Assembly: GCF_001306055.1 (NCBI RefSeq) | Contig: NZ_LGHJ01000009.1 | Span: 90,001 to 122,000, forward strand | Source of the DNA: Bellilinea caldifistulae | GTDB taxonomy: Bacteria; Chloroflexota; Anaerolineae; Anaerolineales; Anaerolineaceae | Length of the DNA stretch: 32,000 nucleotides | Reading direction: 5' to 3' | Shown here: positions 1,235 through 32,000 of the stretch, in pieces | Position numbering within the stretch: position 1 is the first letter of the stretch | Layout of the letters: every line of letters starts with the position of its first letter | Notes under the pieces: model-generated | What the model saw: only the letters and a program-made list of their open reading frames with translations | Databases searched by the model: none | What the model was told of the DNA's origin: nothing | Position numbers and translations under genes: made by a program

Positions 1235-1287
1235 ACCTGAATGTTATATCGTTTGCCTCGCACTAAAAAGGCACCTACTTCATTGAA

Positions 1288-1354: not shown

Positions 1355-1497
1355 CTCTGTATTTATAAGGTCGCCGACCCCATCGAGCATCAGCAGTTGA
1401 ACTTACCACCCATCACAGACCAACCGGCGGGCGATCGTTCGGCATACCGCTTTAAGATGCCAGGGGATGATGCACACCCTCGGACGCTTTTAAAGCA

Positions 1498-1526
1498 TTG
1501 ACACAAAGAAGTAATTGGATTATTCT
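1498..1526 (+). promoter_or_regulatory. Sigma70-like promoter candidate for the VOC gene
   Basis: TTGACA (1498..1503), an exact 17-nt spacer, then TATTCT (1521..1526). It lies about 100 nt upstream of the ATG at 1631. Confidence 0.4.
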
Positions 1527-1630
1527 GGTAAAGTAAGTCAACGATAATACTTGCTTAATCCGTCATCAAAGTTACAACCGCTGAAAGGGATTTTGCCAGA
1601 ACCCAATCGTTCAATTGAGAGGAAAACCGT

Positions 1631-2551: not shown

Positions 2552-2679
2552 GGTTCAGGAACGGGAAAAGCTCCGCCAAATTTTAATGCCTGATCCAGGC
2601 AGCCCCCCAAATCTTCCACCGCTGCGCATCCAGCGGCTGATAAAAGTCAGGCGCAAAGTTGTATCTTCCCTGTGCTTTT

Positions 2680-3597: not shown

Positions 3598-3742
3598 GCT
3601 TCACCTCTTTCAGATGGTTCGGATTGCTAACACCCCTGATTTTACACCCCTTCGGACGATTAAAATTCCTTGTAACCAAAAGGGTACTGTCAAAGCCCCT
3701 CTTCCCAGAGGAGATAATGTTGAAATACTCAGCAAAGCAATT

Positions 3743-4441: not shown

Positions 4442-4569
4442 AGATATCTCTGTAAATCCAATTTACAGGTTGAATGTTTATTTGGAACAACCCGAAAGAG
4501 AAAAAAACCTGGTTTAATTCCATCTCAGGCAATTGGAGTTGCACACCGGTCAGATGAGATTCTTCAGCC

Positions 4570-5316: not shown

Positions 5317-5397
5317 AAGAAGAATGGGAAAAGGTGAAAACTTGGTTAACGTATATACGAAAGAAATGATAAAACAGTTCCATAGCTCTTGTTTCTC

Positions 5398-5772
5398 TCA
5401 CCCCTTAACATAAGAAAGTTTCTCACAAATCAAGCCGTCCCTCACACGGTACACATCCACCCCGCGCACGTGACCGCTGTTTCCCTCCTCGTCCACCCAA
5501 GAGTATTTCCATCGCATCACGCAGCGCTCGCCCATCCCGAAGACTTCTTCCACCTCAATCCGCGCTTGTGGAGACTGTTTGAAGAATTGTTCCCAAAAGC
5601 GGTGCAGCACTTCTTTCCCCCTGTAGGGAGTACCATCCGGAGGTGGATAGGTGTTTTCAAACAGGCAATCCTCGCTCATCCACTGCATCATTGCCGGCAC
5701 GTCATGCCGGTTGAAGGCCTCATTAAAAGCCAGCACCACCCGCAAGGCCGCTTCGATTTTTGCCAGTTTCAC
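5398..5772 (-). CDS. SnoaL-like / NTF2-fold family protein
   Basis: 124 aa. AFNEAFNRHDVPAMMQWMSEDCLFENT is a typical SnoaL-like opening. GTG start with an AAGGAGAG ribosome-binding site. Confidence 0.65.
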   Translation of the reverse strand: MKLAKIEAALRVVLAFNEAFNRHDVPAMMQWMSEDCLFENTYPPPDGTPYRGKEVLHRFWEQFFKQSPQARIEVEEVFGMGERCVMRWKYSWVDEEGNSGHVRGVDVYRVRDGLICEKLSYVKG

Positions 5773-5808
5773 GGCTCTCCTTGTGCGTAAAGGCGTTGTT
5801 TATATCAG

Positions 5809-6312
5809 TTATTGTATCGCATTCCGCAGCGTAATCACCGCTTGGGGCTGCCACTGCTCAGCGATGGACAGCAAAGAAGGGCGCACCACCACCACCGCCA
5901 GCCGGTAAGCCCGCGTGGCAATCGCTTCCAGCGCATTTACCCAGCCCTGGCCCTGCAACAACTCTAAGGGACCCATTTCATCCACGATCAATAAATCGCA
6001 CGGCAGCGCACGCCGAAAAACCGCATTGCCCCACCCAACCGTATCCGTCTCAAAAAGCCATTCACGGGTGTGAATAAGGGCGGCGTCTTTCACTGAACGG
6101 CGGGTAGCCAGCCGGCGGCGCTCACCGCTGCGCACATCCACCGCATCAATCGCTGTTTTTTGCCCGTTCTCAAACACCGCCGGACTGATCAAGCCGGCCA
6201 CATCCCACCCGGCTTGCCGCGCCAGATCCAAAAACTGCTGGCACCAGCGGGTTTTACCCGTACCGATTTCCCCGGTGATAATCCATAAGTCACCCGCCAC
6301 AATCTGCCTCAC
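5809..6312 (-). CDS. P-loop NTPase, THEP1/DUF2478-like
   Basis: 167 aa. Walker A GEIGTGKT and Walker-B-like LLIVDEMGPLEL. The GTG start overlaps the stop of the upstream ABC ATPase (GTGA at 6309..6312), which implies translational coupling. Confidence 0.65.
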   Translation of the reverse strand: MRQIVAGDLWIITGEIGTGKTRWCQQFLDLARQAGWDVAGLISPAVFENGQKTAIDAVDVRSGERRRLATRRSVKDAALIHTREWLFETDTVGWGNAVFRRALPCDLLIVDEMGPLELLQGQGWVNALEAIATRAYRLAVVVVRPSLLSIAEQWQPQAVITLRNAIQ

Positions 6313-7084
6313 ACCCAGGTCAAATAACGGTGACCGTCAAAACGATGCACCTGGACCGGAATACCGTAGACTTCGCTGAGCCGATCGGCTTGCCAGATGT
6401 CCTCCAGCGCCCCGCTGGAAAGCACCTGCCCGCCGCGCATCAACACTACTTGATCGGCGAGGGCGGCGACAACTTCCGGCTCATGAGAGGTGAATAAAAT
6501 CGTCGTACCACCGGCAACCAGATTCTGCAAGCAGGTCACCAGCCGTTTCTTGTTGCCCAAATCGAGATGGGAGGTCGGTTCGTCCAGTAAAAGCAGGTCG
6601 GCCTGTTGAGCCAGTGCCCGCGCCACCAGCAGCAGCTGAAACTCCCCGCCGCTCAGGGATTGGACTGTCCGCCGGGTCATTGGCAGCAAGCCGGTGGTTT
6701 CCAGAGCATACAGGGCAATTTCCACATCCTCAGCCGTCGGCATTTGCAACGGCGAGAGGTGCGGCGCTCTGCCCAGCAATACATATTCCAGAAGCGAATA
6801 AGAAAATGGATTGGTTTCGCGTTGCGGCACAGAGCCACCTTGCGCCCCAATTCCTGACGGGTATAGGAACTCAGCAGACGGCCCTCCAACCAGATACGCC
6901 CGGCCTGAGGTTGAAAACGGCCGTAAGCCAGTCGCAGCAGGGTGGTTTTACCGGCCCCGTTTGGCCCCAGAATAGCCGTCACCCGGCCGCGCGGTACATC
7001 CAGTGAAAGGCCCTGCAAGGCTCTTTCGGCTGCATCCGGGTCACGGTAAACCACTTGCTCAAAACGCAAAACGGCTTCGTTCAT
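6309..7084 (-). pseudogene. ABC transporter ATP-binding protein (FecE/FepC/BtuD type), interrupted by a 1-nt frameshift near 6830
   Basis: The N-terminal part starts at the ATG 7082..7084 and carries Walker A (GPNGAGKT). It loses homology after ...GRKVAL. The C-terminal part, in another frame from 6830, reads (V)PQRETNPFSY... and carries LSGGEFQ, Walker B LLLLDEPTSHLD and an H-loop SHE. CTGTG at 6828..6832 would read L-V-P-Q as CTGGTG, so one base appears to be missing. Repaired, the product would be about 258 aa. Confidence 0.8.
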
Positions 7085-7086
7085 AC

Positions 7087-8136
7087 TCAAACCTTGTAGG
7101 TACGACGGGTCATCAAGATCACAAAGCCCAGCGCGCCCAGCAGGGAGGTCAAGATGCCCAAGGGGATCTCGCCAGCGCTGATTGTGCGCGCCAGATTGTC
7201 GCAAATCATCATGAAAATGCCGCCCGACAGAAAAGCGGTCGGCAATCCATCCCGCGCGTCGGCACCGCTCAGCCGGCGGGCCAGCTGCGGCACCAGCAGA
7301 CCCACCCAGCCAATCAATCCGCTAATCGAGATGGAAGCAGCCGTTACCGCCACCGCCGCCAGCAACACCAGCAGGCGTTCACGGTTGGCAGCCACCCCCA
7401 GTGAAAAAACCACCTCATCATCCAGCGCCAGCAGGTTCAACCGCCAGCGCATCAACCACAGCACCAGCAGCCCCAGGCTGATCAACGGCAGCACTGAAAG
7501 TACCGACCGCCAGGTAATACTCCACAAGCCGCCCAACAGCCAGAAGGTAATATCCGGCAGTTGGCGCAAGGGGTCGGCCAGATACTTGATCAACCCGACC
7601 CCCGAAGCAAACAGAGCCGAAACGGCAATCCCCGCCAGCAACAAACGCAGTACCCAGCCGCCGTAGCGCACCCGCCGTGCCAGCAGATAAGAAAGGAACA
7701 AGCCAGCCAGCCCAAAAATCACGGCGCTGAACTGCACCTGCCAGCCCACCCCGCCTGAGGCAAGAATCGTCAGGGCTGCTCCAAAGGCAGCCGCCTGTGA
7801 AACGCCCAAAAAACCCGGCTCTACCAGCGGGTTGGCAAATACCATCTGCATCACCATACCGGCGCCTGCCAGGCTCATGCCAATTAACACAGAAGCAATC
7901 AGGCGCGGCAGGCGCAGGTTGAGAATCAAACGTTGCGCCAGCGGATCTTCCGTCAGTTGCGCGGGGGAGATCAAACCCACGTGCGGGTAACGTCCAAGGA
8001 ACAGGGAAAGTCCAAACACAACCAGCAGCAAGATCAACATGCCCAGTAACCGGCGGCGGCTCTGAGAACGGCTGGCGGACTTCAAAGCTGCCTTCGAAAC
8101 AACGGGCTGACTGCTGACCGGGCGAGCCAGATTCAC
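7087..8136 (-). CDS. FecCD-family ABC transporter permease (iron-siderophore / cobalamin type)
   Basis: 349 aa and polytopic, with typical FecCD motifs (LNLLALDDEVVFSLGV, GLIGWVGLLVPQLARRL, GILTSLLGALGFVILM). The stop lies 2 nt before the ATPase start. The start overlaps the stop of the binding-protein gene. Confidence 0.85.
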   Translation of the reverse strand: MNLARPVSSQPVVSKAALKSASRSQSRRRLLGMLILLLVVFGLSLFLGRYPHVGLISPAQLTEDPLAQRLILNLRLPRLIASVLIGMSLAGAGMVMQMVFANPLVEPGFLGVSQAAAFGAALTILASGGVGWQVQFSAVIFGLAGLFLSYLLARRVRYGGWVLRLLLAGIAVSALFASGVGLIKYLADPLRQLPDITFWLLGGLWSITWRSVLSVLPLISLGLLVLWLMRWRLNLLALDDEVVFSLGVAANRERLLVLLAAVAVTAASISISGLIGWVGLLVPQLARRLSGADARDGLPTAFLSGGIFMMICDNLARTISAGEIPLGILTSLLGALGFVILMTRRTYKV

Positions 8137-20961: not shown

Positions 20962-21145
20962 GAACAAGCAATCAGCAATACGGGGACAGCCCGATTGTCA
21001 GCGGGTCTTCTCTACCACCCGCTAAACCCTGTGCAAAGCACGGGCAAAATCATCATTCATTAAGCCACACCCGACGGTGGGATTGTCGTTCCTATCCCGC
21101 CTGTTCTTTGGCTTTGCACCCAATCCTGTATGCGGAGGACGACGT

Positions 21146-22477
21146 ATGAATGCTCAACAAGCCTGGCAGGCAGCCCTCGGACAACTGCAAATGGAAATGC
21201 CCAAAGCCTCTTTCGATACCTGGGTTCGTAATGCTGAATTGATCCGCGTGGAAAACAACAAAGCCCGCATTGGTGTCCAAAATGCCTATGCCCGAGACTG
21301 GCTGGAAAGCCGCCTGGCCGGCACATTTGCCCGCTTGTTGACCGGATACCTCGACTCACCGGTAGAGGTGGAGTTCGTTGTCTGGCACCGCGATGCCGAA
21401 CACGAATCCGCTGCACCTTCCGAAATCGTCTCCCATTCCAATGGGAACGGGAACGGCAATGGCAATCGCTGCTTGATTGACCGCTATCGTTTTGATAATT
21501 TTGTGGTGGGCGCCAGCAACCGTATGGCGCACGCGGCTTGTGTGGCCGTGGCTGAAAAACCGGCTCATGCCTATAACCCATTGTTCCTTTATGGCGGGGT
21601 GGGGTTGGGGAAAACCCATCTGCTGCACGCGATTGGCAACGCAGCCACCGAAAAGGGATTGCAGGTGTTGTATGTCTCGTCGGAAGATTTCACCAATGAG
21701 CTGATCAACGCCATCCGCACGCAAAACACGCTGGCTTTCCGTGAACGCTACCGCTCGATGGATGTGCTGCTGATAGACGATATTCAATTCATTGCCGGCA
21801 AAGAATCTACCCAGGAAGAATTTTTCCACACCTTCAACACCCTTCATAATCAGGAAAAGCAGATTGTGCTCTCCTCCGACCGACCGCCCAAGGCGATGGT
21901 CACGTTGGAAGAGCGGCTGCGCTCGCGCTTTGAGTGGGGCTTGACCGTGGACATTCAACCGCCCGACCTGGAAACGCGCATCGCCATTTTACGTTCCAAA
22001 GCCATGCGGGCCGGGCGTGAAGTCCCGATGGACATCTTGACGCTGATTGCGAGGCAGATTCAATCCAACATTCGCGAATTGGAAGGCGCGCTTACCCGCA
22101 TTCTGGCGTATTCCGACCTGAGCAACCAGCCCATCACCGCTAAACTGGTCGAAATTGCGCTGGCCGATCTGTTGCCTCAACAAAGCACAGTGGAACCGGG
22201 AGCGATTATTACCGCGGTGGGGCGGGTATTTGGCGTTAGCCGTGAAAAGTTAGTCGGGCGGGATCGCTCCCGCGAAGTGGCTCTGCCGCGTCAGGTAGCC
22301 ATGTACCTGATGCGCGAAATTGGCGGACTTTCCCTGCCGCAGATTGGAGAGGCCCTGGGCGGACGCGACCACACCACCGTGCTGTATGCCTGCGAAAAAA
22401 TTGCCGACCAGATCGAACGCGACGACCGCCTCCGCCGGCAGGTACTGAACGTCAGGGAACAGGTGTTGGGGAGGTAA
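21146..22477 (+). CDS. dnaA: Chromosomal replication initiator protein DnaA
   Basis: I prefer the ATG at 21146 (GGAGGA ribosome-binding site 6 nt upstream; the N-terminus MNAQQAWQAALGQLQMEM is typical of domain I) over the ORF-track start at 21077. Walker A GGVGLGKTHLL, Walker B LLIDDIQF, sensor motifs, and the C-terminal DNA-binding HTH GGRDHTTVLYACEKI are present. The domain II linker contains an (NG)4 run. Confidence 0.93.
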   Translation: MNAQQAWQAALGQLQMEMPKASFDTWVRNAELIRVENNKARIGVQNAYARDWLESRLAGTFARLLTGYLDSPVEVEFVVWHRDAEHESAAPSEIVSHSNGNGNGNGNRCLIDRYRFDNFVVGASNRMAHAACVAVAEKPAHAYNPLFLYGGVGLGKTHLLHAIGNAATEKGLQVLYVSSEDFTNELINAIRTQNTLAFRERYRSMDVLLIDDIQFIAGKESTQEEFFHTFNTLHNQEKQIVLSSDRPPKAMVTLEERLRSRFEWGLTVDIQPPDLETRIAILRSKAMRAGREVPMDILTLIARQIQSNIRELEGALTRILAYSDLSNQPITAKLVEIALADLLPQQSTVEPGAIITAVGRVFGVSREKLVGRDRSREVALPRQVAMYLMREIGGLSLPQIGEALGGRDHTTVLYACEKIADQIERDDRLRRQVLNVREQVLGR

Positions 22478-22488
22478 GGGGGATAGAG

Positions 22489-24138
22489 TTATCTGGTCTT
22501 ATACTCAATAATTTTATCGTAACGGTATACAGGATCCATTTCCCAGGGTTGACGAATTGTTGGAATTCGCCAGGCCCTGGAGAGATTGGGATTATAATAA
22601 GGATCCCCTTTTTTTATTTTCTCTCGAAAATACTCCCTTTTAGCTAAAAAGTCTTGTTTCGGAATATATTTTCCTCTTGTTTTTCCCTCATAATGGATCA
22701 ACTGAACATCTGGAGTATAAACGATTCTATAACCAGCATCTATGATTCTAAGGCATAGATCAACATCTCCAAAAGCAAGCGTGAGGGATTCATCAAAACC
22801 ACCCACTTGTTCAAAAACATCTCGTCGGACCATCATGCAAGCTCCCGTGACTGCTGACACATTGCGCATCCAATCAACATATCCGTAAGGTGTGTAAATA
22901 TCCGATTTCACTCCCATAAACACATGTGAAGCGTGTCCTTCAAGCCCAATTACAATGCCTGCATGTTGGACCGAACCATCAGGATAGAGCAATTTAGGAC
23001 CTACCGCTCCAACACCCGGGATTTGTAACACACCAGCTAAATTGGTTAGCCAGTCCGGATCAATAATTTCTGTGTCGTTATTTAGAAACAGTAACAGATC
23101 TCCCGTCGCTATTGCAGCTCCCTGATTACATGCGCGAGAAAAGTTGAAGGGAAGGTTTTCTTTTATCACAAGGAAATTCTCATATCTCGACTCATAAAAC
23201 GAGTATAGATTCACAACGTCTAATTTTTCGCTTTGATTATCAACGATAATTACTTCATAATTAGAATAATTAGTCAAGGTGAACAATGAACCAAGACTTT
23301 TACTAATAAACTTATAATTATTACGAGAAGGAATAATTATAGAAATCTTCGTTCCTATATCAGAAAATTTAATAGAAACACTACCGTTTTCCCTCATGTG
23401 AAAAATGGCGTTTATACCCCAATTTTTCATAATACACGAAACAGATTGAATGTGCTGGTTTATTAAAATATCATTTTGCCATGATGATTCTTCTACTTCA
23501 ATTATTGAATTTTGAACATGAGTAACGTCTTTTGAACATTCCATTACTTTACTAAGTAATTCATTGTGGTCAAATAAATTTAATTGTTTCAGAAATTCAA
23601 CCCGATAAACCGCTTTTTCAAGGATATTTATTGAGAGACATAACTCCGGTGACCATTCCGGCTTCAAAAAATACTTATTTCCAAAGGAAGAAATTATCAA
23701 GTCAAAATACAAAACATCCGAGCATACGTGATTTTCTAGAGTTTCAATAAAACATTTAGAGAGACGATCCCCCGGCCGAAGATACATTATGTGACTAGTA
23801 GATATTTTACTGAAGAAATCTTTGCTATAAATATTTAGGTCTCTTAAGTCAAATGGAATAAATTTTTCGGATTCGACTATCTGATGCAACCTTTTGTCAA
23901 ATAAGCAAATCCATTTTTGAGAAGTCTGGAAAACTATTGAATCAACAGTTGATTGTGTATATTCTTGTTTTGGCTCATAAATTAAAACAAAGGTTATCGT
24001 CAAGTTTTCTGAATTTGAATTTGTATAATTAGTATAAATGTTTTCCTCAATGATTTCGGAGAAAAAAGGGCGTATTTTGCAACTTATTATTAATTTTTCA
24101 ATAAAAATACGAAACAGCCAAAAAAGATAATTTAACAT
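22489..24138 (-). CDS. Two-module family-2 glycosyltransferase (degenerate N-terminal GT2-like half plus active C-terminal GT2)
   Basis: 549 aa. The C-terminal half has ISIIIPSRNN...EVIIVDNQS...FLNNDTEI...GACMMVRRDVFEQVGGFDE...DVDLCLR, and ends with the DPYYNPNLS-type tail seen in many GT2 enzymes. The N-terminal half begins like a GT2 (ITFVLIYEPKQ...SIVFQT) but has no visible DxD. Low GC. Confidence 0.8.
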   Translation of the reverse strand: MLNYLFWLFRIFIEKLIISCKIRPFFSEIIEENIYTNYTNSNSENLTITFVLIYEPKQEYTQSTVDSIVFQTSQKWICLFDKRLHQIVESEKFIPFDLRDLNIYSKDFFSKISTSHIMYLRPGDRLSKCFIETLENHVCSDVLYFDLIISSFGNKYFLKPEWSPELCLSINILEKAVYRVEFLKQLNLFDHNELLSKVMECSKDVTHVQNSIIEVEESSWQNDILINQHIQSVSCIMKNWGINAIFHMRENGSVSIKFSDIGTKISIIIPSRNNYKFISKSLGSLFTLTNYSNYEVIIVDNQSEKLDVVNLYSFYESRYENFLVIKENLPFNFSRACNQGAAIATGDLLLFLNNDTEIIDPDWLTNLAGVLQIPGVGAVGPKLLYPDGSVQHAGIVIGLEGHASHVFMGVKSDIYTPYGYVDWMRNVSAVTGACMMVRRDVFEQVGGFDESLTLAFGDVDLCLRIIDAGYRIVYTPDVQLIHYEGKTRGKYIPKQDFLAKREYFREKIKKGDPYYNPNLSRAWRIPTIRQPWEMDPVYRYDKIIEYKTR

Positions 24139-24141
24139 CTT

Positions 24142-26820
24142 TTATCTGCTTATGATAGGTAAAAATTCCTTGAATAGTTGATCAACAATGAGAACACGCA
24201 ATAATATATTCTTATCCCCCCCTATCCCGCAATTAACGCTGAGTGTAGCCTCAAAATTTCTGTTAAGAAATTGTTGAACAACAAACTTAATATTCGCAAC
24301 CCTTTCAAAATTTAATTCAGGTGTCTCAACTAAAACATTTTGACTATTTTTTGAAGAAATTTGACAATTCAAGACTCCTCCACCAGCATTATAAATAGTA
24401 ATAAATCCTACTTTATCCTGATCATTGACATCAAATAATGCAAGGAAATTGCTTGGTGCCTCCAATAGTGGAGACTTTTCATTTTCGATCACATATCCCC
24501 CATACTTTGTAATTACAAATAATCTATATTCTAATTTGTCATATAAATTTGCCAAACTCACCTCTCCAAACAGACTAATCGAAATATAATCAACCATGTC
24601 AATATCCAAATCTATCAAATCCGAAGATTGGATATTCGAAATTGACCATTCCACTCTGGCTGGATTAGAAAATTTATTAAATTTAATAAAGGGAGAATTG
24701 ATCGTTTGTTGAGTTACCGAATAAGAATGCTCACCTATCCTTAATGTGTAATTTTGTTGAGAAGGATCATAAATAAAACCCCATTCTCCTACAGTTTGAT
24801 TATTTAGAAATGCATTACTACCCCCTGAACCATACAGAATATACGGAACTATAGATGACCGATCAATGCGAACTACAGGCGGAAATTGCCTTATCAGTCC
24901 ATATACATGAGGGGACGCAAGAGATGTATTCGAGAATCCCTTTTTCGTGTACTCCACCCCAACATTTCTATAAATTGTTATAGTGTTTAGTTTTGAAACA
25001 TCATTACAGCAATAATTAGGATTGCTATTTGTGTAAACTGATAAATTTTGGAAGGTATTTGTGTAAAACTGATTATTGTAATATATTACATGATTGATTG
25101 GATAACTTTTATTATCTCTGTCGTAAATTGGTAAACCCTTATTCTCACTAAAAATATTCGATCTCACCTCACCCTTCGCATCCAAAAAACGTTCATCCAT
25201 AACTGCCATAAATAATGCTGCCCCATACGACACGTTAGGGTCAGCACCAATAGTAAATAGCTCATTACTGCTAAAAATATTGTCAAGAATGTCAATAACA
25301 GAACCCGAGCCATAAATCGCTCCCCCAAATTTTGATTTGTTCTTAATGAATTTCGAGAAAGTTATTGTTCCATATGAATTTTGAATAACTGATATTGCCC
25401 CTCCATTTGCAGATGAGTTTCCAAAAAATAGACTGTCGTTTATTTGAAAATTCGCCAAATCTAACATCACCGCCCCCCCATGCCCACCATCATCTCGTGA
25501 AAACAAACCTAAAAAGGCAGTATTCTCAATAACTACGTGGGCCCGATTTTCATCGGATGTTCCCATTCTAGAGACATTGTTATTCCCAAACAATCTATTC
25601 GCATCACCAGCCACATAAACTCCACCTGCGTCCTTTGCAAAAAAACTTTTATTATCCCCCTTAAAGATACTATCTTTGATAATCAGTCTTGCCGACGGAC
25701 GGTTAATCTGGGCATCGAGTGAAGTATCATTCGATGTTGCTGAAATAGAGCCTCCAAAGTAACTTAAGCTTGCTTGATTTGACTCAAAGACAGAAGTATA
25801 CACTTCTGTTTCTGATCTATATAATGATATTGCGCCGCCTATTTCTGCTTGATTATTTGTAAATACAGAATAATAAATGCTTGTTTTCGCATTGTCTTCT
25901 GTGTGAATTGCTCCCCCTTCATTAGGTGACGGCGTGTTTATGTTTGTTGCTTTCTTGGCTTTATTTAATTCAAACCTTGAATTTACAACTATAACATCCG
26001 TTAATGGATAATCCCATCTACCAATCGAATAAATCGCCCCTCCTGCAAAACCCGATTCATTCGAAAGAAATACCGAATCAGCAACACGGATCTTCGCGTC
26101 CCCCACATGAATAGCTCCTCCAGATGCTATATTTCGATGGCCGGCAATATTTGTCCTATTCCCATTAAATTCTGAGTTGACAATCCACCCCTTCGAACCA
26201 CTTACAATTGCGATTGCTCCGCCATAGTTTTTGTCTATATTATTTGTAAAACGCGAGTTTAAGATATAAACTTTTGAGTTATTGGTAATAAACAAAGCCC
26301 CTCCACCTGCAGAGGGTTGTTCTCCCCGATTGTTAATAAAAGCACAATTAACGAAAGTAACTTTTGCACCATCAACTGTACCTGCACCACCATAACCATC
26401 AATCATGGAATAACTATTTTGGAAAGTCAGTCCTTCAAAAATCACCAATCCCGAATTATTATGTATATAAAGAATTCCTTTATTGCCCCCTATAGGTGGC
26501 TCAATCAACACATTTCCGCTTGAAGACTTAATTATAAAGTGTTTTGTGGAATTCTTTATCTCAATAAATTCACGATAAACTCCATCCGAGATTTCAATAA
26601 TACCCCCATCCACTACTTGTTGAATGGCTTGATTGATAGTAATATTTTGGGGACCTGGCACCATCACTACCAAGGAATTTTGGTCTTCCATTCTTAAGTT
26701 TTTATTGGAAAATCCTGGAATAGAACTTATATTTGCAAATAACAAAGATAATGAAAATACGATACTAAACGATCGCATCCCCGAAACCATGTTGTAAAAG
26801 AATTTTTTTATCATCTTCAT
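24142..26820 (-). CDS. Secreted right-handed beta-helix repeat protein with GGAI/FxxN (polymorphic-membrane-protein-type) repeats
   Basis: 892 aa. Signal-like N-terminus (MRSFSIVFSLSLLFANISS). The real start may be one of the internal Mets at 26790 or 26778, which would shorten the 56-nt overlap with the upstream gene. About a dozen G-G-A-[ILV]-type units occur every 25-35 aa, interleaved with (F/V)xxN motifs (GGALFITNNSKV, GGAIAIVSGS, GGAIHVGDAK, GGAIYSIG, GGAIHTED, GGAISLYRS, NGGAISV, FGGAIYG). The C-terminal ~300 aa are non-repetitive and include an Ig-like pattern (ITIYNAGGGVLNCQISS). Confidence 0.75.
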   Translation of the reverse strand: MKMIKKFFYNMVSGMRSFSIVFSLSLLFANISSIPGFSNKNLRMEDQNSLVVMVPGPQNITINQAIQQVVDGGIIEISDGVYREFIEIKNSTKHFIIKSSSGNVLIEPPIGGNKGILYIHNNSGLVIFEGLTFQNSYSMIDGYGGAGTVDGAKVTFVNCAFINNRGEQPSAGGGALFITNNSKVYILNSRFTNNIDKNYGGAIAIVSGSKGWIVNSEFNGNRTNIAGHRNIASGGAIHVGDAKIRVADSVFLSNESGFAGGAIYSIGRWDYPLTDVIVVNSRFELNKAKKATNINTPSPNEGGAIHTEDNAKTSIYYSVFTNNQAEIGGAISLYRSETEVYTSVFESNQASLSYFGGSISATSNDTSLDAQINRPSARLIIKDSIFKGDNKSFFAKDAGGVYVAGDANRLFGNNNVSRMGTSDENRAHVVIENTAFLGLFSRDDGGHGGAVMLDLANFQINDSLFFGNSSANGGAISVIQNSYGTITFSKFIKNKSKFGGAIYGSGSVIDILDNIFSSNELFTIGADPNVSYGAALFMAVMDERFLDAKGEVRSNIFSENKGLPIYDRDNKSYPINHVIYYNNQFYTNTFQNLSVYTNSNPNYCCNDVSKLNTITIYRNVGVEYTKKGFSNTSLASPHVYGLIRQFPPVVRIDRSSIVPYILYGSGGSNAFLNNQTVGEWGFIYDPSQQNYTLRIGEHSYSVTQQTINSPFIKFNKFSNPARVEWSISNIQSSDLIDLDIDMVDYISISLFGEVSLANLYDKLEYRLFVITKYGGYVIENEKSPLLEAPSNFLALFDVNDQDKVGFITIYNAGGGVLNCQISSKNSQNVLVETPELNFERVANIKFVVQQFLNRNFEATLSVNCGIGGDKNILLRVLIVDQLFKEFLPIISR

Positions 26821-27865
26821 TTGCTATTTCCCGATAAAAATACTTTATGGCTGGTCTTAAGTATTGTTTGTAATGAATGTATCTAATTTTTGAATGAATC
26901 GATTTTTCTTTGAATAGCGCATCAATAAAACCATTATAATAAGAATAATCTAACACTTTCAAGAATAGATAATCTACAGTTTTGTTAGGGTAAGATTCAA
27001 AATAACTAATCAGGCGAATAGCGTTTTTCCACATTCGTTCTTCAAAATCCACAGAATAGGATTTTTGAGCAAACGGTAAATGCAACAGTAAATTAAACAA
27101 TCTTTTTACTTGGGCATTCAAGACACAAATTGTACCGGGATGTTTTTTGATCAATAAATATGACATTACTCCACTTTTATATTGTCGTTTTGAAAAGCTC
27201 CATGAAGTATGATAATGATAATGATAACCCAAAATTTGTGGTTGATAGACAATCTCTAGCCCTTTCTTAGATAAACGGTATCCAAGCTCTACATCTTCAA
27301 AGGCTGCATAAATAAAGTCTGTATCAAACCATTTTGTTTCATAAAACAAAAAATCCCGCTTAACGGAAATATTACAGGTATAAAAGTGTCTAAAATCATA
27401 AGTATCACCCTCTTTCATGTAATAATAACTGAATTGTTGAGCTCCATTTCCATCAATATGTCTCATTAGGTTATTTGAGGGCATATCAGGCGGCCAAGTA
27501 ACTTTACCAAGAACAGCTGTTGTTTCGTTTCTATACTTCTGATGAGCGATATAGTGGCCACTTACAAAGTTTCTCAAAGGTAATATATCGTCTCCCACAA
27601 AGATCAAAATTGGCGAGTCGGCCATGCTTATTCCAGTATTTCGAGCTGCAGCAGGGCCCATATTGGATTGATGTCTAAAAACCTTTAGGTCATAATTTTT
27701 CGGTTTGTAGCTCATTAACAAATCAAATGTATTATCAGACGAGGCATCATCTATGGCTATAACTTCAAACCTGGAATTAAATTCCTGATTATCATAAGCG
27801 GATAGAACTCGATTAAGATCATGCGCTCTGTTATAGCAGGGCATAATTACACTAATTTTATTCAT
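26765..27865 (-). CDS. Family-2 glycosyltransferase
   Basis: 366 aa. ISVIMPCYNRAHDL...FEVIAIDDASSDNT...ILIFVGDDILP (DxD) are classic GT-A/GT2 signatures. It overlaps the upstream gene by 8 nt. Confidence 0.8.
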   Translation of the reverse strand: MNKISVIMPCYNRAHDLNRVLSAYDNQEFNSRFEVIAIDDASSDNTFDLLMSYKPKNYDLKVFRHQSNMGPAAARNTGISMADSPILIFVGDDILPLRNFVSGHYIAHQKYRNETTAVLGKVTWPPDMPSNNLMRHIDGNGAQQFSYYYMKEGDTYDFRHFYTCNISVKRDFLFYETKWFDTDFIYAAFEDVELGYRLSKKGLEIVYQPQILGYHYHYHTSWSFSKRQYKSGVMSYLLIKKHPGTICVLNAQVKRLFNLLLHLPFAQKSYSVDFEERMWKNAIRLISYFESYPNKTVDYLFLKVLDYSYYNGFIDALFKEKSIHSKIRYIHYKQYLRPAIKYFYREIANEDDKKILLQHGFGDAIV

Positions 27866-28892
27866 CGTTATTAATTCTTGATTTTTGGAGAATCTTATTG
27901 ATTAAGGATTGAAATAGCCTTTTTCCGTCAGTTACCTTACTCTGCTTTTCCTCATCTACAATTGTTTTAGTAATATATTTGATAATTGTTTTTCTCACAT
28001 CATTTTCAGGGTGCAACAAGAGCTCAGCTAAATTATCATTTGTTGAGATTCCCAAACTCAATAGTGCAATTAGTGCTTTATCTGCCCCACCCACATAAAT
28101 TGAATGAATAAGATTATTAATTCTTGAACCCTCAATCAGGTTAGTTTTTTCTAGATGAGATAAACTGGGTAAATGACGGGCAAGAGTCCAACATATCTCA
28201 TAATACATCTCAGCTATATTCGTGCGAATAGTATTTGACGAATGTATCCGATATTTTAGTAATGGATGTGGATATAAAAATAAGTCAAAATATTTTATAG
28301 TCCGGAGTAAATAATCCCAATCGTGGGTGAATTTCAGATTAGTAAAGAAACCGACTTTTTCAAGAACAGATCTGGTGAAAATAAAATTTGAGGTAGTACT
28401 TACATAATTTTCTGTCAACAACGGCAGGTAAATGTTATCTTGTGCACGAAATGAATACTCAGGATGTTCAAGAGACCATGGTTCTAAGTTGTGGTGTCCC
28501 TCCTTAATGCCTAATGTTTTTCCCTTTTTATCAATAACCTCAATGTAGCTACAAAATAACCCAATGCTTTTATCTTGCAAGAATACTTCTTTAGCTACGT
28601 TTAACCTTCCTGAACAATATAAATCATCCGAGTTTAAGATAGCAATATATTTTCCTTTAGCTAAACTTAGACCAATATTAAGCGCCGCATGAGCCCCTTT
28701 ATTTTGTTGTGTGTATAAAGTCATTCGCTTATCGTTTATTTTTCTTAACAATTCAACAGAGTTATCTGTTGAGCCGTCATCGACAACAATTAACTCAAGG
28801 TCAACATCTTGACCAAATAATACACTATTCACAGCCTCAATAATATAACTTGAATGATTGTAAGAGGGAATAATGACAGAAAACTCAGTCAT
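27858..28892 (-). CDS. Family-2 glycosyltransferase
   Basis: 344 aa. FSVIIPSYNHSSYIIEAVNSV...LELIVVDDGSTDNS...YIAILNSDDLY. The start overlaps the stop of the upstream giant GT (ATGA, 28889..28892). Confidence 0.8.
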   Translation of the reverse strand: MTEFSVIIPSYNHSSYIIEAVNSVLFGQDVDLELIVVDDGSTDNSVELLRKINDKRMTLYTQQNKGAHAALNIGLSLAKGKYIAILNSDDLYCSGRLNVAKEVFLQDKSIGLFCSYIEVIDKKGKTLGIKEGHHNLEPWSLEHPEYSFRAQDNIYLPLLTENYVSTTSNFIFTRSVLEKVGFFTNLKFTHDWDYLLRTIKYFDLFLYPHPLLKYRIHSSNTIRTNIAEMYYEICWTLARHLPSLSHLEKTNLIEGSRINNLIHSIYVGGADKALIALLSLGISTNDNLAELLLHPENDVRKTIIKYITKTIVDEEKQSKVTDGKRLFQSLINKILQKSRINNDE

Positions 28893-31800
28893 TTCTCTCC
28901 CAAAAACGCTTTTTTATACTTTTCAGCCATTAATTTTATCGAGTAATTCTGCTTAACCGCTTCCCTGAGTTTTTCTTTATTAGGTGGATTATCTATTACT
29001 CGCTGAATCCCTTCTAGTAATTTATCTATTTGCCCGGGTTCAGCTTCTGCAATCCCCCCACCAGTTGCTAACAGCACCTCTTTTATATTCCCAACATCTG
29101 TAGACACAACGGGAACACCCATAGATAGCGATTCTAGAACAACCATTGGCATTCCCTCATACTCTGATGTCAAGACAATTACATCAGATATAGCAAAAAT
29201 GTCCCGACTGGGCGAATAGAAAGTTCTATGATGGATATTTTTTAACCCTTTCATTATGATTTCCCCATTAACTGATTCAGATAAAACACCATCCCCAACC
29301 ATTAGAAAATAATAATTGAGTCCCTTTAGATTAGCTCTTCTTGATAATTCGACAAAATCCAGCGGCCGTTTTTGAGGATGAATCCTCCCGATAAAAGTTA
29401 CCACTTTCAAATCTAAAGGAATGCCTAATCGTGTTTTTATTTCCTTTAACTTTTCTTTATTGTAATAGGCTGGATTATAAAAATCAGTATTTACTCCATT
29501 CTCAATATAGTAAATTGAGTGAGGTAGAACACCCTTCTCTATATACGCATCAACGATTTTTTTATTAATTGCAATGTGTGAATCAAGTGCCCTAACTATC
29601 TCCTTAGAATACCAATTTATCCAACCAGCCTCATGATCATAAACTTGATTTATGATTCTTAATTTTGGATGTTTTTTTGAAATCGATATGATGTTTTCAT
29701 AAATCCAAATACTACCATTTGCTATATAAAGTATATTAACATGAAATTTCTCAATAAGGTAATTTAAAACCTGGAGATACAAGGATTGATCAATAAAATC
29801 TGGAAAGGTATAAATAAATGGTGTAATTTGACGAAATTCATCTATTGTTGTTCCCAACTCAGCTTTGTGAAACTCTTGGGTTGCAATAACAAAAATAAAA
29901 TCGTCCTTAAGATGACTCATCATCTCAAGGGAAATTCTTTCAACCCCTCCTACTGCAAGAAAAGGTTGAATCATTAATACAACAGGTTTTTCACTATTAT
30001 TTATTGAAGATGAGATGTAGACAGTATTTTTATCACGAACTTTTTTGAGTCTCTCAAGATTATTGAACTGCCCAATAATATACTTCGTGATAGGTTCATA
30101 ATGAATGCTTGCCTCATTTACTATTACATCAAATGGAACATTCGCCTCTGTATCAGGTATATTCACTGGTTGAATAATTAATTTTCCTACTCCTTGAAAC
30201 GTCATTGTTAAATTTTGGTCTTGAGTTTTTGTTATTTCTTCAATTACCTCTTTATTAAGAACCATACGAAAGTATGGCAATTCAGGACTACCTGGAAATA
30301 AACCCCTCTCAAGTTTTTCTGAAAATAAACTTGTATAACCCAATTGATTAATCGTATAGGGTAAATTCTCAACCTCTAACGCGATCAAATTAGTTTCTAA
30401 AAAAGTTGGAGGCATTGAAAGAAGATCAAAATAACCTATCACTACATATTTTGTCTTTATAGATTTCAGAACATCTTTCCAAGAATTAACATTCTCGATT
30501 AGAATATTATTTGATCCAAAGTATTCTAAAATTGCGAGTTTTTTATCCCACAGAACAACATCTGCAACAACGGTTTGCCTAGATAACCACTCTTTTACCT
30601 GCTCAATATTAGGAAAAGGAATTTTATCATTTGCAGGAACAAGAATGGTAACAAAATTTTCGTCATCTTTTATTTTTGGAATTATTTGAACCGATACATT
30701 TTGCTCTTTTTTTCCAGAAAACAATATCTGTCTCCTTTTCTTAAGCAAGAAACTTTTAGTTTTAGCAAAGATTTTATCAAAAATACTCCCTTGAGGAAAT
30801 ATCTTAAAGCGCATAATTGACAATCTTTCCAGGATCCTCCAAGTGATTGAGTTCTTTATCGATTGTATTTGTGATTCTTTTTCTTTAATCAATAGGTCTT
30901 TATTTTCAATCAACTTGATTAATTCTGATTTTTTCCTTTTTTCGTTCTCAAGAGATTGTTCATCTTTTTTATACCAAAACTCTGTAATCTTTATAACTTC
31001 TAAAATTTTTTTCTCTAGCTGATCGCTTTTTTTGTTTTGTAAAATCTTCTCAAAGGCATCTTCCCATGCTTTAGCTCGCTCTTCAGTAAGCACATAATTA
31101 TCCTTAACAAACCTTAATGCATTTATTCCAATCTCATACCGAATAATCGGGTTTTCAATTAACTTTCTGATGTAATATTCCCATTCATCCAAGGAGCTCG
31201 CTAAAAATCCATTTACCTCATTTGTTACGCAAGAGTAAGGTGGCAAGTTGGTATAAACACCAGGCACACCTAGAGTACTATATTCAAGATATTTTAGAGA
31301 ACTTTTAGATCGGTTAAAGTCACAATCAACAAGTGGGGCAATAAACAAATCAGTAGATTGAGACAAGAACCACTTAACAAACAATTTATAGTCGGAGAGC
31401 GCGACGTCAATATAGATTGAATTACGAGCTTTTTCTAAATCTCCGGGTGGTCTACATCCCCAAAAAGAAAGCTCTACCTTAGATGCATATTTTTGGCTAA
31501 TCTTGTATAGAACTGGTTTTATCATTTCTAGATCTGCAAAATGAGAAGCAGATCCCATAAATGTTATTTTTACAGGATATTCATTTTTTATAATTTGCGG
31601 GGGAAATCTAAATTCCCAAATTTCTGGAATTATATAATTTGGCAAAATAAAAATATTTTCCGAGAATCCTTGAAGATAGGATTTCAGCATAGGATTACTA
31701 CAAATAATGGCATCAGAATTAATAATAGCCTCAAGAATTCGATATCTAGCTGGTTTATAACGTTTTAAATCAGGATGAAATTCGGGTAAATCCAGCAATA

Positions 31801-32000
31801 GATCATCAATTTCATAAATTACAGGTTTATTAAATTTTTTTGCCTTCTCAAAAACCTTACAATAATCTTTATAATGAGCCGGGAAATCTCTTTGAATGAC
31901 CACTAAATCAACTTGTTCAATTATCTCATCCTTTACTACAATTTTATCCGCCGCCCAATGATTGCCTCGCAAAACTTCAATACCAATTTTTTGTAAGGGT
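28889..32000 (-). CDS. Giant multi-module glycosyltransferase (N-terminal GT-B-like module, coiled coil, degenerate GT2-like middle, C-terminal GT4/GT1-type module); 5' end outside window
   Basis: At least 1027 aa. The reading frame stays open from 31972 to the window edge, so the TTG at 31972 is probably not the start. The C-terminal module has IGRIHPQKRP...EYEGMPMVVLESLSMGVPVVSTDVG (the GT4 EX7E region). Residues about 312-385 form a Lys/Glu-rich heptad-like stretch ending in SITWRILERL. Residues about 440-470 read FVTILVPANDKIPFPNIEQVKEWLSRQT, which looks like a GT2 start. Confidence 0.75.
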   Translation of the reverse strand, partial: PLQKIGIEVLRGNHWAADKIVVKDEIIEQVDLVVIQRDFPAHYKDYCKVFEKAKKFNKPVIYEIDDLLLDLPEFHPDLKRYKPARYRILEAIINSDAIICSNPMLKSYLQGFSENIFILPNYIIPEIWEFRFPPQIIKNEYPVKITFMGSASHFADLEMIKPVLYKISQKYASKVELSFWGCRPPGDLEKARNSIYIDVALSDYKLFVKWFLSQSTDLFIAPLVDCDFNRSKSSLKYLEYSTLGVPGVYTNLPPYSCVTNEVNGFLASSLDEWEYYIRKLIENPIIRYEIGINALRFVKDNYVLTEERAKAWEDAFEKILQNKKSDQLEKKILEVIKITEFWYKKDEQSLENEKRKKSELIKLIENKDLLIKEKESQIQSIKNSITWRILERLSIMRFKIFPQGSIFDKIFAKTKSFLLKKRRQILFSGKKEQNVSVQIIPKIKDDENFVTILVPANDKIPFPNIEQVKEWLSRQTVVADVVLWDKKLAILEYFGSNNILIENVNSWKDVLKSIKTKYVVIGYFDLLSMPPTFLETNLIALEVENLPYTINQLGYTSLFSEKLERGLFPGSPELPYFRMVLNKEVIEEITKTQDQNLTMTFQGVGKLIIQPVNIPDTEANVPFDVIVNEASIHYEPITKYIIGQFNNLERLKKVRDKNTVYISSSINNSEKPVVLMIQPFLAVGGVERISLEMMSHLKDDFIFVIATQEFHKAELGTTIDEFRQITPFIYTFPDFIDQSLYLQVLNYLIEKFHVNILYIANGSIWIYENIISISKKHPKLRIINQVYDHEAGWINWYSKEIVRALDSHIAINKKIVDAYIEKGVLPHSIYYIENGVNTDFYNPAYYNKEKLKEIKTRLGIPLDLKVVTFIGRIHPQKRPLDFVELSRRANLKGLNYYFLMVGDGVLSESVNGEIIMKGLKNIHHRTFYSPSRDIFAISDVIVLTSEYEGMPMVVLESLSMGVPVVSTDVGNIKEVLLATGGGIAEAEPGQIDKLLEGIQRVIDNPPNKEKLREAVKQNYSIKLMAEKYKKAFLGEK

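Follow-up and report, generated by a model that had tools for sequence, protein, structure and literature searches.

A low-GC block beside dnaA in Bellilinea caldifistulae is very probably part of a resident surface-glycan assembly locus

The window, the whole 32,000-nucleotide stretch of Bellilinea caldifistulae (Anaerolineaceae) DNA analyzed here, matches NCBI AC812_03420 of that species exactly. It carries dnaA and, from 22489 to the window edge, a series of minus-strand genes for a GT2-type glycosyltransferase (GT), a beta-helix protein, two further GT2 proteins and a large GT. G+C steps from 54% to 34% at 22,478. The features around the step are the following.

21077..22477, plus strand: dnaA, with a likely true start at the ATG at 21146 (TIGR00362, E 2e-161; GC3 0.65)
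22478..22488, no strand: 11-nt spacer between two convergent stop codons, read from the sequence; the compositional junction
22489..24138, minus strand: 549-aa protein with a GT2 domain at residues 263-495 (PF00535, E 6e-22), the last gene of the operon
24142..26820, minus strand: predicted 892-aa secreted beta-helix/Ig protein (Chlam_PMP repeats, signal-like N-terminus)
26765..27865, minus strand: 366-aa GT2, EpsD-like, with a C-terminal extension (PF00535, E 7e-23)
27858..28892, minus strand: 344-aa GT2 (PF00535, E 1e-25)
28889..32000, minus strand: large GT with two GT-B modules, cut by the window edge; 1058 aa in full, with its start at about 32065 in extended coordinates

The five minus-strand ORFs are tightly packed, as the first-pass annotation had described: the first pair is 3 nt apart, and the others overlap by 56, 8, and 4 nt. 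The domain search bears out all three GT2 proteins and supports the proposed surface-glycan operon of GT2/GT4 enzymes with a secreted beta-helix protein, and the operon does extend past the window edge. No Pfam match was found for residues 1-260 of the 549-aa protein, whose orthologs are 84% identical in L084 and 39% identical in L091 (GT2_606). The 366-aa GT2 matches the EpsD model NF041875 (E 4e-49, below the model cut-off) and has 49% identical orthologs in L091 and L092. L084 and L093 represent a sister lineage (DnaA 94%, other host proteins 88-96% identical) and L094 a third lineage; L091 and L092 are other Chloroflexota that carry the same core gene set.

The large GT had been called a three-module enzyme of more than 1027 aa. 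The size holds, but no more than two GT-B modules and a coiled coil can be shown. The first module, at the N-terminus (residues 48-329), is paralogous to a separate 424-aa GT1, a coiled coil placed by a heptad heuristic at about 314-409 is followed by an amphipathic S-x-T-W-R motif, and the C-terminal GT4 module spans residues 691-1058. The 240-aa middle domain (451-690) has no family match. Full-length homologs number about 60, and those with a name come from Anaerolineae/Chloroflexota.

The dnaA gene belongs to the host core and forms the conserved left edge of the block. The block had been described as starting 11 bp past the dnaA stop; the spacing is correct, but dnaA and the first block ORF point toward each other, which makes 22489 the operon's 3′ end and not its beginning. 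A terminator-like hairpin for dnaA, identified as a consensus match, lies at 22588-22607 on the plus strand, inside the 3′ end of the 549-aa gene. The suggestion that the block occupies the site of dnaN fails: the closest relatives have no dnaN after dnaA, and RNase J is found there in L005. Around dnaA, synteny with the closest relatives is kept upstream only.

As window averages, G+C is 0.536 over 1-22477 and 0.340 over 22478-32000. The reported drop is real, but the upper host value of 68% given with it was too high. The published genome has 52.18% GC (PMC4574363). In 1-kb windows, G+C is 0.31-0.39 in the block and 0.44-0.60 outside, with host stretches at 3.5-5 kb reaching merely 0.44-0.47. 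The block is foreign-looking in composition, as had been claimed, with GC3 of 0.26-0.30 in its five genes vs 0.60-0.72 in most host genes; two host ORFs at 3.7-5.3 kb have GC3 of 0.48-0.51.

The whole locus covers about 15.5 kb (22489 to about 37967, extended coordinates). Past the window edge it contains an IS5 element (transposase NF033579, E 3e-27), a coiled-coil methyltransferase gene, wzm/wzt, the 424-aa GT1 and another GT2. The exporter genes are about 2.2 kb past the window end, and the earlier statement that there is no ABC exporter is true of the visible part but a window-edge artefact. On L001, a contig independently assembled from another sample, they are located as follows.

L001 3881-4720: Wzm, ABC2_membrane permease (PF01061; PDB 6m96/6oih Wzm, E 3e-20; also 9qfx, a probable O-antigen/LPS ABC permease)
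L001 3115-3864: Wzt ATPase, 249 aa (ABC_tran; TagH and galactan Wzt models, E 1e-58 to 5e-65, with scores below the equivalog cut-offs)

An ABC-2 permease and its cognate ATPase are both encoded in the cluster, outside the 32-kb window, together with several cytoplasmic GTs (four GT2, one GT1, and the 1058-aa protein). The 249-aa Wzt has no C-terminal carbohydrate-binding module (Wzt_C), a hallmark of the capped subclass alone; the Wzt proteins of relatives L090 and L091 have one. The search for exporters and mobile genes beyond 32,000 that had been advised found, besides wzm/wzt, the internal IS5 as the only mobile gene, and no integrase is present at either block boundary. GC3 is 0.36-0.40 in the wzm/wzt/GT1/GT2 arm and 0.66 in IS5. 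G+C is 0.34 in the central part of the cluster, 0.42 in the transporter arm and 0.54 in the local host DNA, so the cluster is clearly below the genome average with its minimum in the central GT genes, the pattern that marks S-layer-glycan (slg) clusters.

The 287-aa methyltransferase (MT287, Methyltransf_23) has a coiled coil at residues 190-268 by the same heuristic and shares with the large GT the tail motif that follows it (blastp E 3e-5). Its weak PDB match is CgnL (7pd7), also the nearest relative reported for the O7 terminator methyltransferase (PMC11231755). As seen, the pathway is incomplete: no priming polyprenyl-phosphate glycosyl-1-phosphate transferase of the WecA/WbaP type is encoded in extended 22489-38892, and no sugar-nucleotide genes lie within the 15.5-kb locus. 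Related clusters contain Glycos_transf_4 (L088) or rml genes (L089/L091), and by analogy with WecA in enterobacteria the priming transferase may be encoded elsewhere.

In the sister lineages the locus includes two genes for polytopic membrane proteins of 519 aa and 810 aa (13-TM). The 810-aa protein hits Pfam PF20176 (JGI name: DUF6541); the family of the 810-aa protein has at least 1356 matches, the named ones from Anaerolineales/Chloroflexota. Both genes are gone from B. caldifistulae. IS5 and the methyltransferase gene have taken their place, and all that is left of the 810-aa gene is its final 72 codons, at extended 32070-32285 (81% identical). The loss of the two genes is IS5-associated, and the pathway may be disabled or rewired here.

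Taken together, we consider it very probable that the low-GC block makes up two-thirds, on the dnaA side, of a resident locus for ABC-transporter-dependent cell-surface glycan assembly. The gene content is observed, and the steps that follow are inferred from protein families. On the cytoplasmic side, the four stand-alone GT2 proteins, the GT1 and the dual-GT-B protein would assemble the glycan on a polyprenyl-phosphate carrier. The S-x-T-W-R motif of the latter may form a membrane-proximal amphipathic helix, and with the coiled coil it would mark the protein as a polymerase/terminator scaffold. MT287, with the same coiled coil and motif tail, probably caps the chain, and Wzm/Wzt would export the lipid-linked polymer. 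In characterized systems, a carbohydrate-binding module accompanies the chain-terminating modification (PMC11231755); recognition of a methyl cap by the exporter is weakened as a step because this Wzt has no such module. Outside the membrane the secreted PL6-like beta-helix/Ig protein may act on, or bind, the polymer, and in the sister lineages the two polytopic proteins would also participate. The locus behaves like a classic hypervariable surface-polysaccharide locus, with a conserved transporter, a replaceable and fast-evolving center, and the lowest GC in the center.

Coiled-coil terminators and modular polymerases of ABC-transporter-dependent systems provide the framework for this reading (PMC11231755). 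Escherichia coli O9a/Klebsiella pneumoniae O3 WbdA-WbdD, K. pneumoniae O12 WbbB, and O7 ORF6 share with the locus a Wzm/Wzt exporter and a polymerase with several GT modules; the same systems include a methyltransferase whose C-terminus carries a coiled coil and a short tail motif, and in WbbB a coiled coil parts the N-terminal from the C-terminal GT module of a large GT (PMC11231755). The Bellilinea system differs in that Wzt is without the carbohydrate-binding module, there is no kinase domain, the coiled coils have a short length of about 70-95 residues, a lipid A-core/WaaL setting is missing, and extra conserved extracytoplasmic parts are present (the beta-helix protein; YfhO or the 810-aa membrane protein). 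Low-GC slg and O-antigen clusters are the closest parallels to the locus as a whole. Surface-glycan clusters are classically AT-rich and the finding is largely ordinary; less ordinary are the beta-helix/Ig protein and the IS5-associated loss of membrane-protein genes.

The 892-aa protein has a signal-like hydrophobic N-terminal segment. In its AF2 model (full-length pLDDT 89.8, helix-only pLDDT 94.2), residues from about 50 to 630 form a right-handed parallel beta-helix resembling PL6 lyases, and the C-terminus (about 640-880) forms three Ig/PapD-like beta-sandwich domains. Foldseek neighbors of the helix are mainly carbohydrate-active enzymes, with the PL6 lyases 5gkq, 5gkd, 1dbg, and 7o78 as top matches (E 9e-7 to 3e-4; 10-14% identity, TM-scores 0.2-0.5). 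The protein shares the helix and a profile-detectable N-terminal cap with PL6 lyases such as chondroitinase B and AlyGC, the family profile matching the chondroitinase B cap over residues 27-136 (E 3e-5). E308, R335, and D365 are invariant with one-coil spacing, and an invariant acidic residue and Arg about 27 residues (about one coil) apart are reminiscent of the Ca2+-site/Arg arrangement in PL6. PL6 enzymes have a Lys250/Arg271 pair (PMC6488583); no invariant lysine equal to the PL6 catalytic base was found in the family, K312 not being conserved. The GGAI-type PMP repeats and the three Ig-like domains also set the protein apart from PL6 lyases. It had been termed Pmp-type, and it shares Chlam_PMP/POMP repeats and a beta-helical passenger-like fold with chlamydial Pmp autotransporters, but the nearest fold is that of PL6 lyases, the C-terminus is an Ig-like sandwich, no PF03797 autotransporter beta-barrel is present, and the setting is glycan biosynthesis. 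A beta-helix gene within a glycan biosynthetic cluster recalls Vibrio cholerae RbmB, an operon-encoded matrix glycanase. Homologs are in glycan clusters in L087-L092, with polytopic partners (YfhO in L088, L091, and L092; Wzy_C in L089; the 810-aa protein in L084 and L094), and gene context suggests that this conserved, unnamed protein is a companion of glycan clusters in several phyla.

The 892-aa protein could instead belong to a surface layer or sheath and serve as the secreted glycoprotein acceptor of an slg-type protein-glycosylation locus, the exported glycan being moved to it by a membrane oligosaccharyltransferase (candidates are the 810-aa protein, YfhO, and the Wzy_C protein). A structural glycoprotein gene adjoins slg clusters, and the Bellilinea cluster likewise includes a secreted surface-protein gene. 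The slg clusters of thermophilic Bacillaceae (Geobacillus stearothermophilus NRS 2004/3a, Paenibacillus alvei) resemble it in other ways: here too a cluster of 30-43% GC, lowest in the central strain-specific GT genes, lies in a thermophile's genome of about 52-53% GC (PMC2943079). Also in common are wzm/wzt beside GT genes, overlapping ORFs, a multidomain GT and a methyltransferase function that caps the chain, and the slg clusters are likened to LPS and cps loci (PMC2943079). Polytopic membrane proteins consistently accompany the beta-helix gene, PMP-type repeats are typical of surface proteins, and the gene is among the fastest-evolving of the locus (78% identity, dN/dS 0.16 vs L084). Unlike slg clusters, the Bellilinea block has no Wzy_C O-oligosaccharyltransferase (found only in the distant L089), no WsaP-type priming enzyme and no rml genes; its secreted protein, a putative acceptor, is a PL6-like beta-helix where slg clusters have an S-layer protein of the SLH type, and its host belongs to the Chloroflexota. 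Several features argue against an acceptor. No SLH or other wall-anchoring domain is present. Neither WWDxG nor any other oligosaccharyltransferase signature occurs in the 810-aa protein, which has no PDB match either, sequon enrichment in the 892-aa protein is marginal (19 vs 13 +/- 3.2), and the helix has enzyme neighbors and the three invariant polar residues. B. caldifistulae has lost the candidate transferase, yet its beta-helix gene is still intact. We regard an acceptor role as rather doubtful.

Alternatively, the locus may be decaying, the IS5 insertion/deletion having severed the operon promoter and essential membrane parts so that the five genes are becoming pseudogenes. The 810-aa gene remnant adjoins IS5, IS5 and the methyltransferase gene now lie between the operon start and the divergent wzm promoter region, and a second strain has the same IS. 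All five ORFs are nevertheless intact, and their dN/dS of 0.12-0.17 vs L084 points to purifying selection over most of the divergence. The methyltransferase is native to such clusters (46% identical ortholog in L092), suggesting allele replacement over pure decay, and decay is unlikely.

The first-pass annotation favored recent acquisition from a low-GC donor; on this reading the block would be too young to have ameliorated. The strong GC3 contrast, the IS5 element inside the locus and the lack of a low-GC block after dnaA in the family-level relatives L004, L005, and L006 fit this, as do close strains with 0 SNPs over 6.6-9.5 kb of the block and 1-5% difference in the adjacent dnaA, which could reflect recent within-species spread of one allele. 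However, L084/L093 and L094 have the block at the same place, flanked by dnaA and a CMD-family gene (the latter 93-94% identical across lineages), and the junction sequence itself is homologous in L084, with an 8-nt spacer. Wzm/Wzt are 90-94% identical in these lineages and the central GTs and beta-helix protein 63-86%. Synonymous divergence from L084 is comparable (dS 0.50-0.77 for island genes; 0.64-1.20, around 0.9, for host genes). IS5 has host-like GC and sits within the block, not at its border, and named hits to block proteins outside the clade are from Anaerolineae/Chloroflexota, with no low-GC donor phylum. The same low-GC block at the same locus in close relatives, with host-like hits, was what the annotation itself had named as the mark of an ancient resident cluster. 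Recent acquisition is already largely refuted and very improbable.

The block instead appears to be old and not drifting toward host composition, because divergence at four-fold degenerate sites equals that of the host (island 0.37, host 0.41), yet GC4 is 0.302 in the island and 0.776 in the host, the island value being about 0.30 in both lineages. Under a two-state amelioration model, which takes no account of codon selection or saturation, an ameliorating island would have a GC4 of 0.55 today or an impossible -0.21 at the split. The block would thus have been in place between dnaA and the CMD-family gene before the three Bellilinea-clade lineages split and would have held its own AT-rich composition since. 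An assembly chimera, a fusion of the dnaA contig with a low-GC contig from a different organism, would explain the abrupt step within the 11-nt spacer but is hardly credible: L001 (99.95% identical) and L002 (99.3%), independent assemblies from other samples, cross the junction in colinear order and reach about 510-530 bp into dnaA, the same junction is in a 96.8-kb metagenome contig of the sister species, and past the far boundary there are again host genes, 84-94% conserved in relatives.

The beta-helix/Ig family comprises about 210 clusters at 50% identity, and its invariant Glu, Arg, and Asp fall on successive coils. We tentatively propose that it may be a core extracytoplasmic part of an envelope-glycan pathway, as glycan-processing enzyme or acceptor, with YfhO or the 810-aa family as GT-C-like membrane partners, in a pathway widespread in Chloroflexota and present in other phyla. 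As a separate part of this proposal, active maintenance, not a donor signature that is fading, would account for the extreme AT-richness of the allele in the Bellilinea clade; it could stem from selection on expression or silencing, or from a missing host GC-raising force.

A sharp GC step beside a core gene does not by itself point to misassembly or to a recent transfer. AT-richness persists for very long in surface-glycan loci, quantified here as equal synonymous divergence with GC4 of 0.30 vs 0.78 in two lineages. Contigs consisting mostly of such islands were binned to the wrong organism, one labelled Bacteroidia and one Thermosphaera. Anaerolineae are filamentous bacteria, abundant in digesters, and their envelope chemistry is poorly known. 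The locus outlines a gene set for a cell-envelope glycan in this class and flags the unnamed beta-helix protein and the unnamed membrane-protein families as testable parts of the pathway.

The first 22.5 kb of the window has a G+C content of 0.44-0.60 (mean 0.536, 1-kb sliding profile), and from 22.5 kb to the window end the content is 0.31-0.39 (mean 0.340). Per-gene GC3 sets the two compartments clearly apart, with 0.26-0.30 in the five block genes versus 0.60-0.72 in most host genes; two host-side ORFs at 3.7-5.3 kb read 0.48-0.51. The low-GC block and its five-gene coordinates, as proposed in the first-pass annotation, are borne out exactly by the ORF list and the GC profile. Neighboring genes overlap by 56, 8, and 4 nt, apart from one pair with a 3-nt gap between them. 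Pfam and NCBIfam models identify three GT2 proteins, a C-terminal GT4 module in the large protein, and Chlam_PMP repeats in the 892-aa protein.

Features of the low-GC block and its flanks (extended coordinates: the window plus the reverse complement of positions 1-6892 of the near-identical contig L001, about 6.9 kb past the window end)
stop at 22477, plus: dnaA (TIGR00362, E 2e-161)
22489-24138, minus: 549-aa GT2
24142-26820, minus: 892-aa beta-helix protein
26765-27865, minus: 366-aa GT2
27858-28892, minus: 344-aa GT2
28889 to beyond 32000 (start about 32065), minus: large GT, 1058 aa in full
32070-32285 (L001 about 6608-6823), minus: remnant of an 810-aa membrane-protein gene, beside the IS5
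32328-33176, plus: IS5-family transposase gene (NF033579, E 3e-27; GC3 0.66, host-like)
33232-34095, minus: MT287, a 287-aa SAM-methyltransferase (GC3 0.29)
34173-35012, plus: wzm (PF01061; PDB Wzm 6m96/6oih, E 3e-20)
35029-35778, plus: wzt, 249 aa, without Wzt_C (TagH and galactan-Wzt models, E 1e-58 to 5e-65)
35784-37058, plus: 424-aa GT1
37068-37967, plus: 299-aa GT2
from 37970, minus: CMD-family gene, then a gene of about 325-329 aa (host-like GC)

The whole block spans about 15.5 kb at 37% G+C. GC3 is 0.36-0.40 in wzm, wzt, the 424-aa GT1, and the 299-aa GT2, and the locus has three composition tiers, with the minimum in the central GT genes. The first-pass annotation saw no ABC exporter in the visible part of the block; wzm and wzt do occur, just past the window edge. 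Neither a simple scan nor blastn found terminal inverted repeats for the IS5 or further IS copies in the window.

Because dnaA runs along the plus strand to its stop at 22477, the 11-nt spacer is the meeting point of two convergent genes, and what had been taken for the beginning of the operon is its 3′ end. With a spacer this short, transcripts of dnaA and of the operon must either overlap or terminate within each other's coding regions. Some 110 nt beyond the dnaA stop, where the 549-aa GT2 gene has its 3′ end, the coding sequence contains a terminator-like hairpin with a T-run after it (22588-22607, plus strand; a consensus match only). The longest dnaA ORF has a GTG start at 21077, and the sister DnaA (441 aa) points instead to the ATG at 21146. 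The linker region of DnaA contains a (Gly-Asn)4 repeat (21440-21466), and no DnaA-box cluster that would place oriC was found upstream of dnaA in the window.

Elsewhere in the window, two adjacent plus-strand ORFs (308-694 and 707-1234, the second a 175-aa Phage_integrase fragment, E 4e-32) occupy a 43% GC stretch at the left edge and are probably a split tyrosine recombinase from another mobile element. Minus-strand ORFs at 3743-4441 and 4570-5316 have no Pfam match, below-host GC (0.45-0.49), and GC3 of 0.48-0.51, and may form a further small accessory patch. An AT skew of +0.36 at 7001-8000, over a minus-strand FecCD-family permease gene, is the ordinary codon composition of a membrane protein.

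The 892-aa protein has an exact match in NCBI AC812_03420 from Bellilinea caldifistulae, a thermophilic filamentous member of the Anaerolineaceae with a draft genome of 3.70 Mb and 52.18% G+C (PMC4574363). An exact-sequence look-up placed block proteins on four contigs of different assemblies, two of which were compared with the window. An assembly chimera, one of the two explanations first offered for the step, is excluded: L001 (DRR198553; 99.95% identity, colinear from 32000 down to 21949) and L002 (SRR24079451; 99.3%, down to 21969) both run through the junction and reach about 510-530 bp into dnaA.

Among these close strains the adjacent core gene is less conserved than the island, and the differences are patchy. 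All five mismatches between the window and L001 (21949-32000) are in dnaA (22012-22408), with none in the 9.5 kb of island; against L002, 19 mismatches are in dnaA and 50 in the large GT (28961-31126), and the stretch 22328-28960 is free of them. This pattern points to recombination at the edge of the locus or to one allele having swept recently; an alternative is that the metagenome contigs are mosaics.

The other explanation, recent acquisition from a low-GC donor, is contradicted by relatives that carry the block at the same site. The nearest beta-helix homolog outside Bellilinea (78% identity) is on a 96.8-kb JGI contig of a sister lineage (L084/L093), in which host genes are 88-96% identical to those of the window and DnaA 94%. 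There, the same low-GC operon converges on dnaA across an 8-nt spacer, the junction sequence is alignable to the window, and the far boundary matches (299-aa GT2, then the CMD-family gene, 93% identical, and the ~325-aa gene, 85%). A third lineage, L094 (BPGY01000029.1), shares this gene order and far boundary, with flanks as in Bellilinea. It is binned as "Bacteroidia" and is evidently a misbinned contig of the Bellilinea clade, judging from these flanks and the 94% identity of both CMD and Wzt. Across the three lineages Wzm and Wzt are 90-94% identical, and the GTs and beta-helix protein just 63-86%. L094 and L087 (JAWANS010000038.1, binned as "Thermosphaera", a doubtful placement) are public MAG contigs that consist mostly of the low-GC cluster. 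More low-GC genes lie beyond the CMD and ~325-aa genes (L093 1-630, GC3 0.29; L094 485-3039, GC3 0.37), and the host-like segment formed by these two genes may form an islet with AT-rich regions on both sides.

Family-level relatives, drawn from the listed matches of a DnaA scan of GTDB species genomes (L004-L006, DnaA 62-68% identical), differ from the window 3′ of dnaA, where their GC is host-like. L004 and L005 keep the dnaA-upstream neighbors LPG_synthase_TM and amine oxidase, L006 matches the window in dnaA only, and L005 has RNase J after dnaA. None of the three carries dnaN after dnaA, so the island is not in "the dnaN position" for this lineage, as had been supposed. The far-flank genes (CMD, ~325-aa gene) were not found within 10 kb of dnaA in these three.

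Divergence between the window and L084 bears on the age of the block. dS is 0.64-1.20 in host genes and 0.50-0.77 in block genes (dN/dS 0.02-0.08 and 0.12-0.17, respectively). Four-fold degenerate sites differ at 0.41 in host (n=923) and 0.37 in block genes (n=925), with W/S-class differences of 0.268 and 0.265. GC4 is 0.776 in host genes and 0.302 in the block in both lineages. In a crude two-state relaxation model calibrated on host genes (per-lineage decay factor 0.48), a block that had GC4 of 0.30 when the lineages split and ameliorated from there would stand at about 0.55 today; run backward, the model starts a block now at 0.30 from an impossible -0.21. Block and host have diverged together, and the block keeps its own AT-rich equilibrium, a conclusion that is robust qualitatively although the model is crude. 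With L084 as outgroup, SNPs between window and L002 polarize as 20 AT>GC versus 13 GC>AT changes, but they are all in one gene and resemble a recombination tract, and so carry no information on amelioration.

Low GC is not a property of the gene family itself, as homologous clusters have host-like GC in L089 (0.51), Tahibacter L090 (0.68), and two other Chloroflexota (L091, 0.57; L092, 0.53), and the L088, L091, and L092 clusters show a mild central dip at most. Those homologs of the large GT and 810-aa protein that carry names are from Anaerolineae/Chloroflexota, and the L092 cluster includes an MT287 ortholog (46% identical); the gene content is thus native to the phylum. The AT-rich allele, if ever imported, arrived before the three-lineage split, and the donor was probably another member of the Chloroflexota. 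It could have come from a lineage resembling L087, a contig of 40% GC that bears the same cassette.

In the interval from wzm to the large GT, the sisters encode two polytopic membrane proteins (519 aa; 810 aa with ~13 TM segments), in place of which Bellilinea has MT287 and the IS5. Of the 810-aa gene, Bellilinea keeps just the final 72 codons (81% identical, directly upstream of the large GT), and it has thus undergone an IS-associated deletion or replacement. The 810-aa protein (L084 2291-4723) belongs to a large uncharacterized family, mostly from Anaerolineales (at least 1356 hits), with hits to PF20176/DUF6541 and PF07760/DUF1616. One family member also has a fused GT2 domain. The 810-aa protein may be an extracytoplasmic glycosyltransferase. 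We rejected the idea that it or the 519-aa protein is an oligosaccharyltransferase: Pfam, NCBIfam, and PDB-sequence searches gave no hits, and neither protein has a WWDxG motif.

The content of the locus fits ABC-transporter-dependent glycan assembly. In characterized systems, polymerase GT modules are distributed across single- and multi-module proteins, the terminator (often a methyltransferase) has a coiled-coil molecular ruler, and Wzm/Wzt export the finished lipid-linked chain (PMC11231755). The large GT begins with a GT-B module paralogous to the separate 424-aa GT1 (E 7e-20), followed by a predicted coiled coil (~314-409), a 240-aa domain without a family, and the GT4 module. MT287 has a methyltransferase domain and then a predicted coiled coil (~190-268), and the coils of both proteins end in a common short motif, S-x-S/T-W-K/R...F-P (blastp E 3e-5). 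The arrangement is reminiscent of WbbB and WbdD. At E<=1, Pfam matches neither the large GT's middle domain nor the N-terminal half of the 549-aa GT2 nor the C-terminal extension of either small GT2. Two features set the locus apart: Wzt has no carbohydrate-binding module, and the block contains no priming enzyme or sugar-nucleotide genes.

The closest overall parallel is the S-layer glycan (slg) clusters of thermophilic Bacillaceae, where the glycoprotein gene adjoins the cluster. Published features of slg clusters are 30-43% GC within genomes of 45-53% GC with the minimum in central GT genes, overlapping ORFs, GT genes downstream of wzm/wzt, and a multidomain GT with a capping methyltransferase (PMC2943079).

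The confident AlphaFold model of the 892-aa protein (pLDDT 89.8, pTM 0.84; helix alone 94.2 and 0.93) has a disordered signal region, a right-handed beta-helix (~50-630), and C-terminal Ig/PapD-like sandwiches. Foldseek with the helix alone returned almost exclusively PL6 lyases at the top (AlyGC, chondroitinase B, others), then tailspike depolymerases, GH110, RbmB, and AlgE4, with the adhesins PfbA, pertactin, and Ag43 lower. The family profile also detected the chondroitinase B N-terminal cap by sequence (E 3e-5). E308, R335, and D365 are invariant in 33-36 homologs with identity down to ~30%, and their spacing of 27-30 residues is about one coil; no lysine is invariant in this set. The pattern calls to mind how PL6 enzymes arrange their Ca2+ site and Arg (Lys250/Arg271; PMC6488583).

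The family comprises ~210 representative clusters at E<=1e-30, and the gene was inside a glycan cluster in all neighborhoods examined. In Chloroflexota-type loci and L087-L089 it occurs alongside two GT2 genes and a large dual GT, and often there is a polytopic membrane protein too (YfhO, 810-aa family, or Wzy_C). In L090 it accompanies Wzm/Wzt, a WbsX/RgpF GT, GtrA, and two membrane proteins. We tentatively favor a putative dedicated extracytoplasmic role in glycan processing or glycan binding. A role as acceptor glycoprotein seems rather unlikely; N-glycosylation sequons (19 versus 13 +/- 3.2 in shuffles) are not significantly enriched.

The compositional observation in the first-pass annotation thus stands, and neither of its two simplest readings does. 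What lies beside dnaA is a surface-glycan locus, resident, hypervariable, and AT-rich; its kind is well known, and the phylum is new for it. Modestly new are its conserved, unnamed PL6-like beta-helix component and the failure to ameliorate put in numbers.
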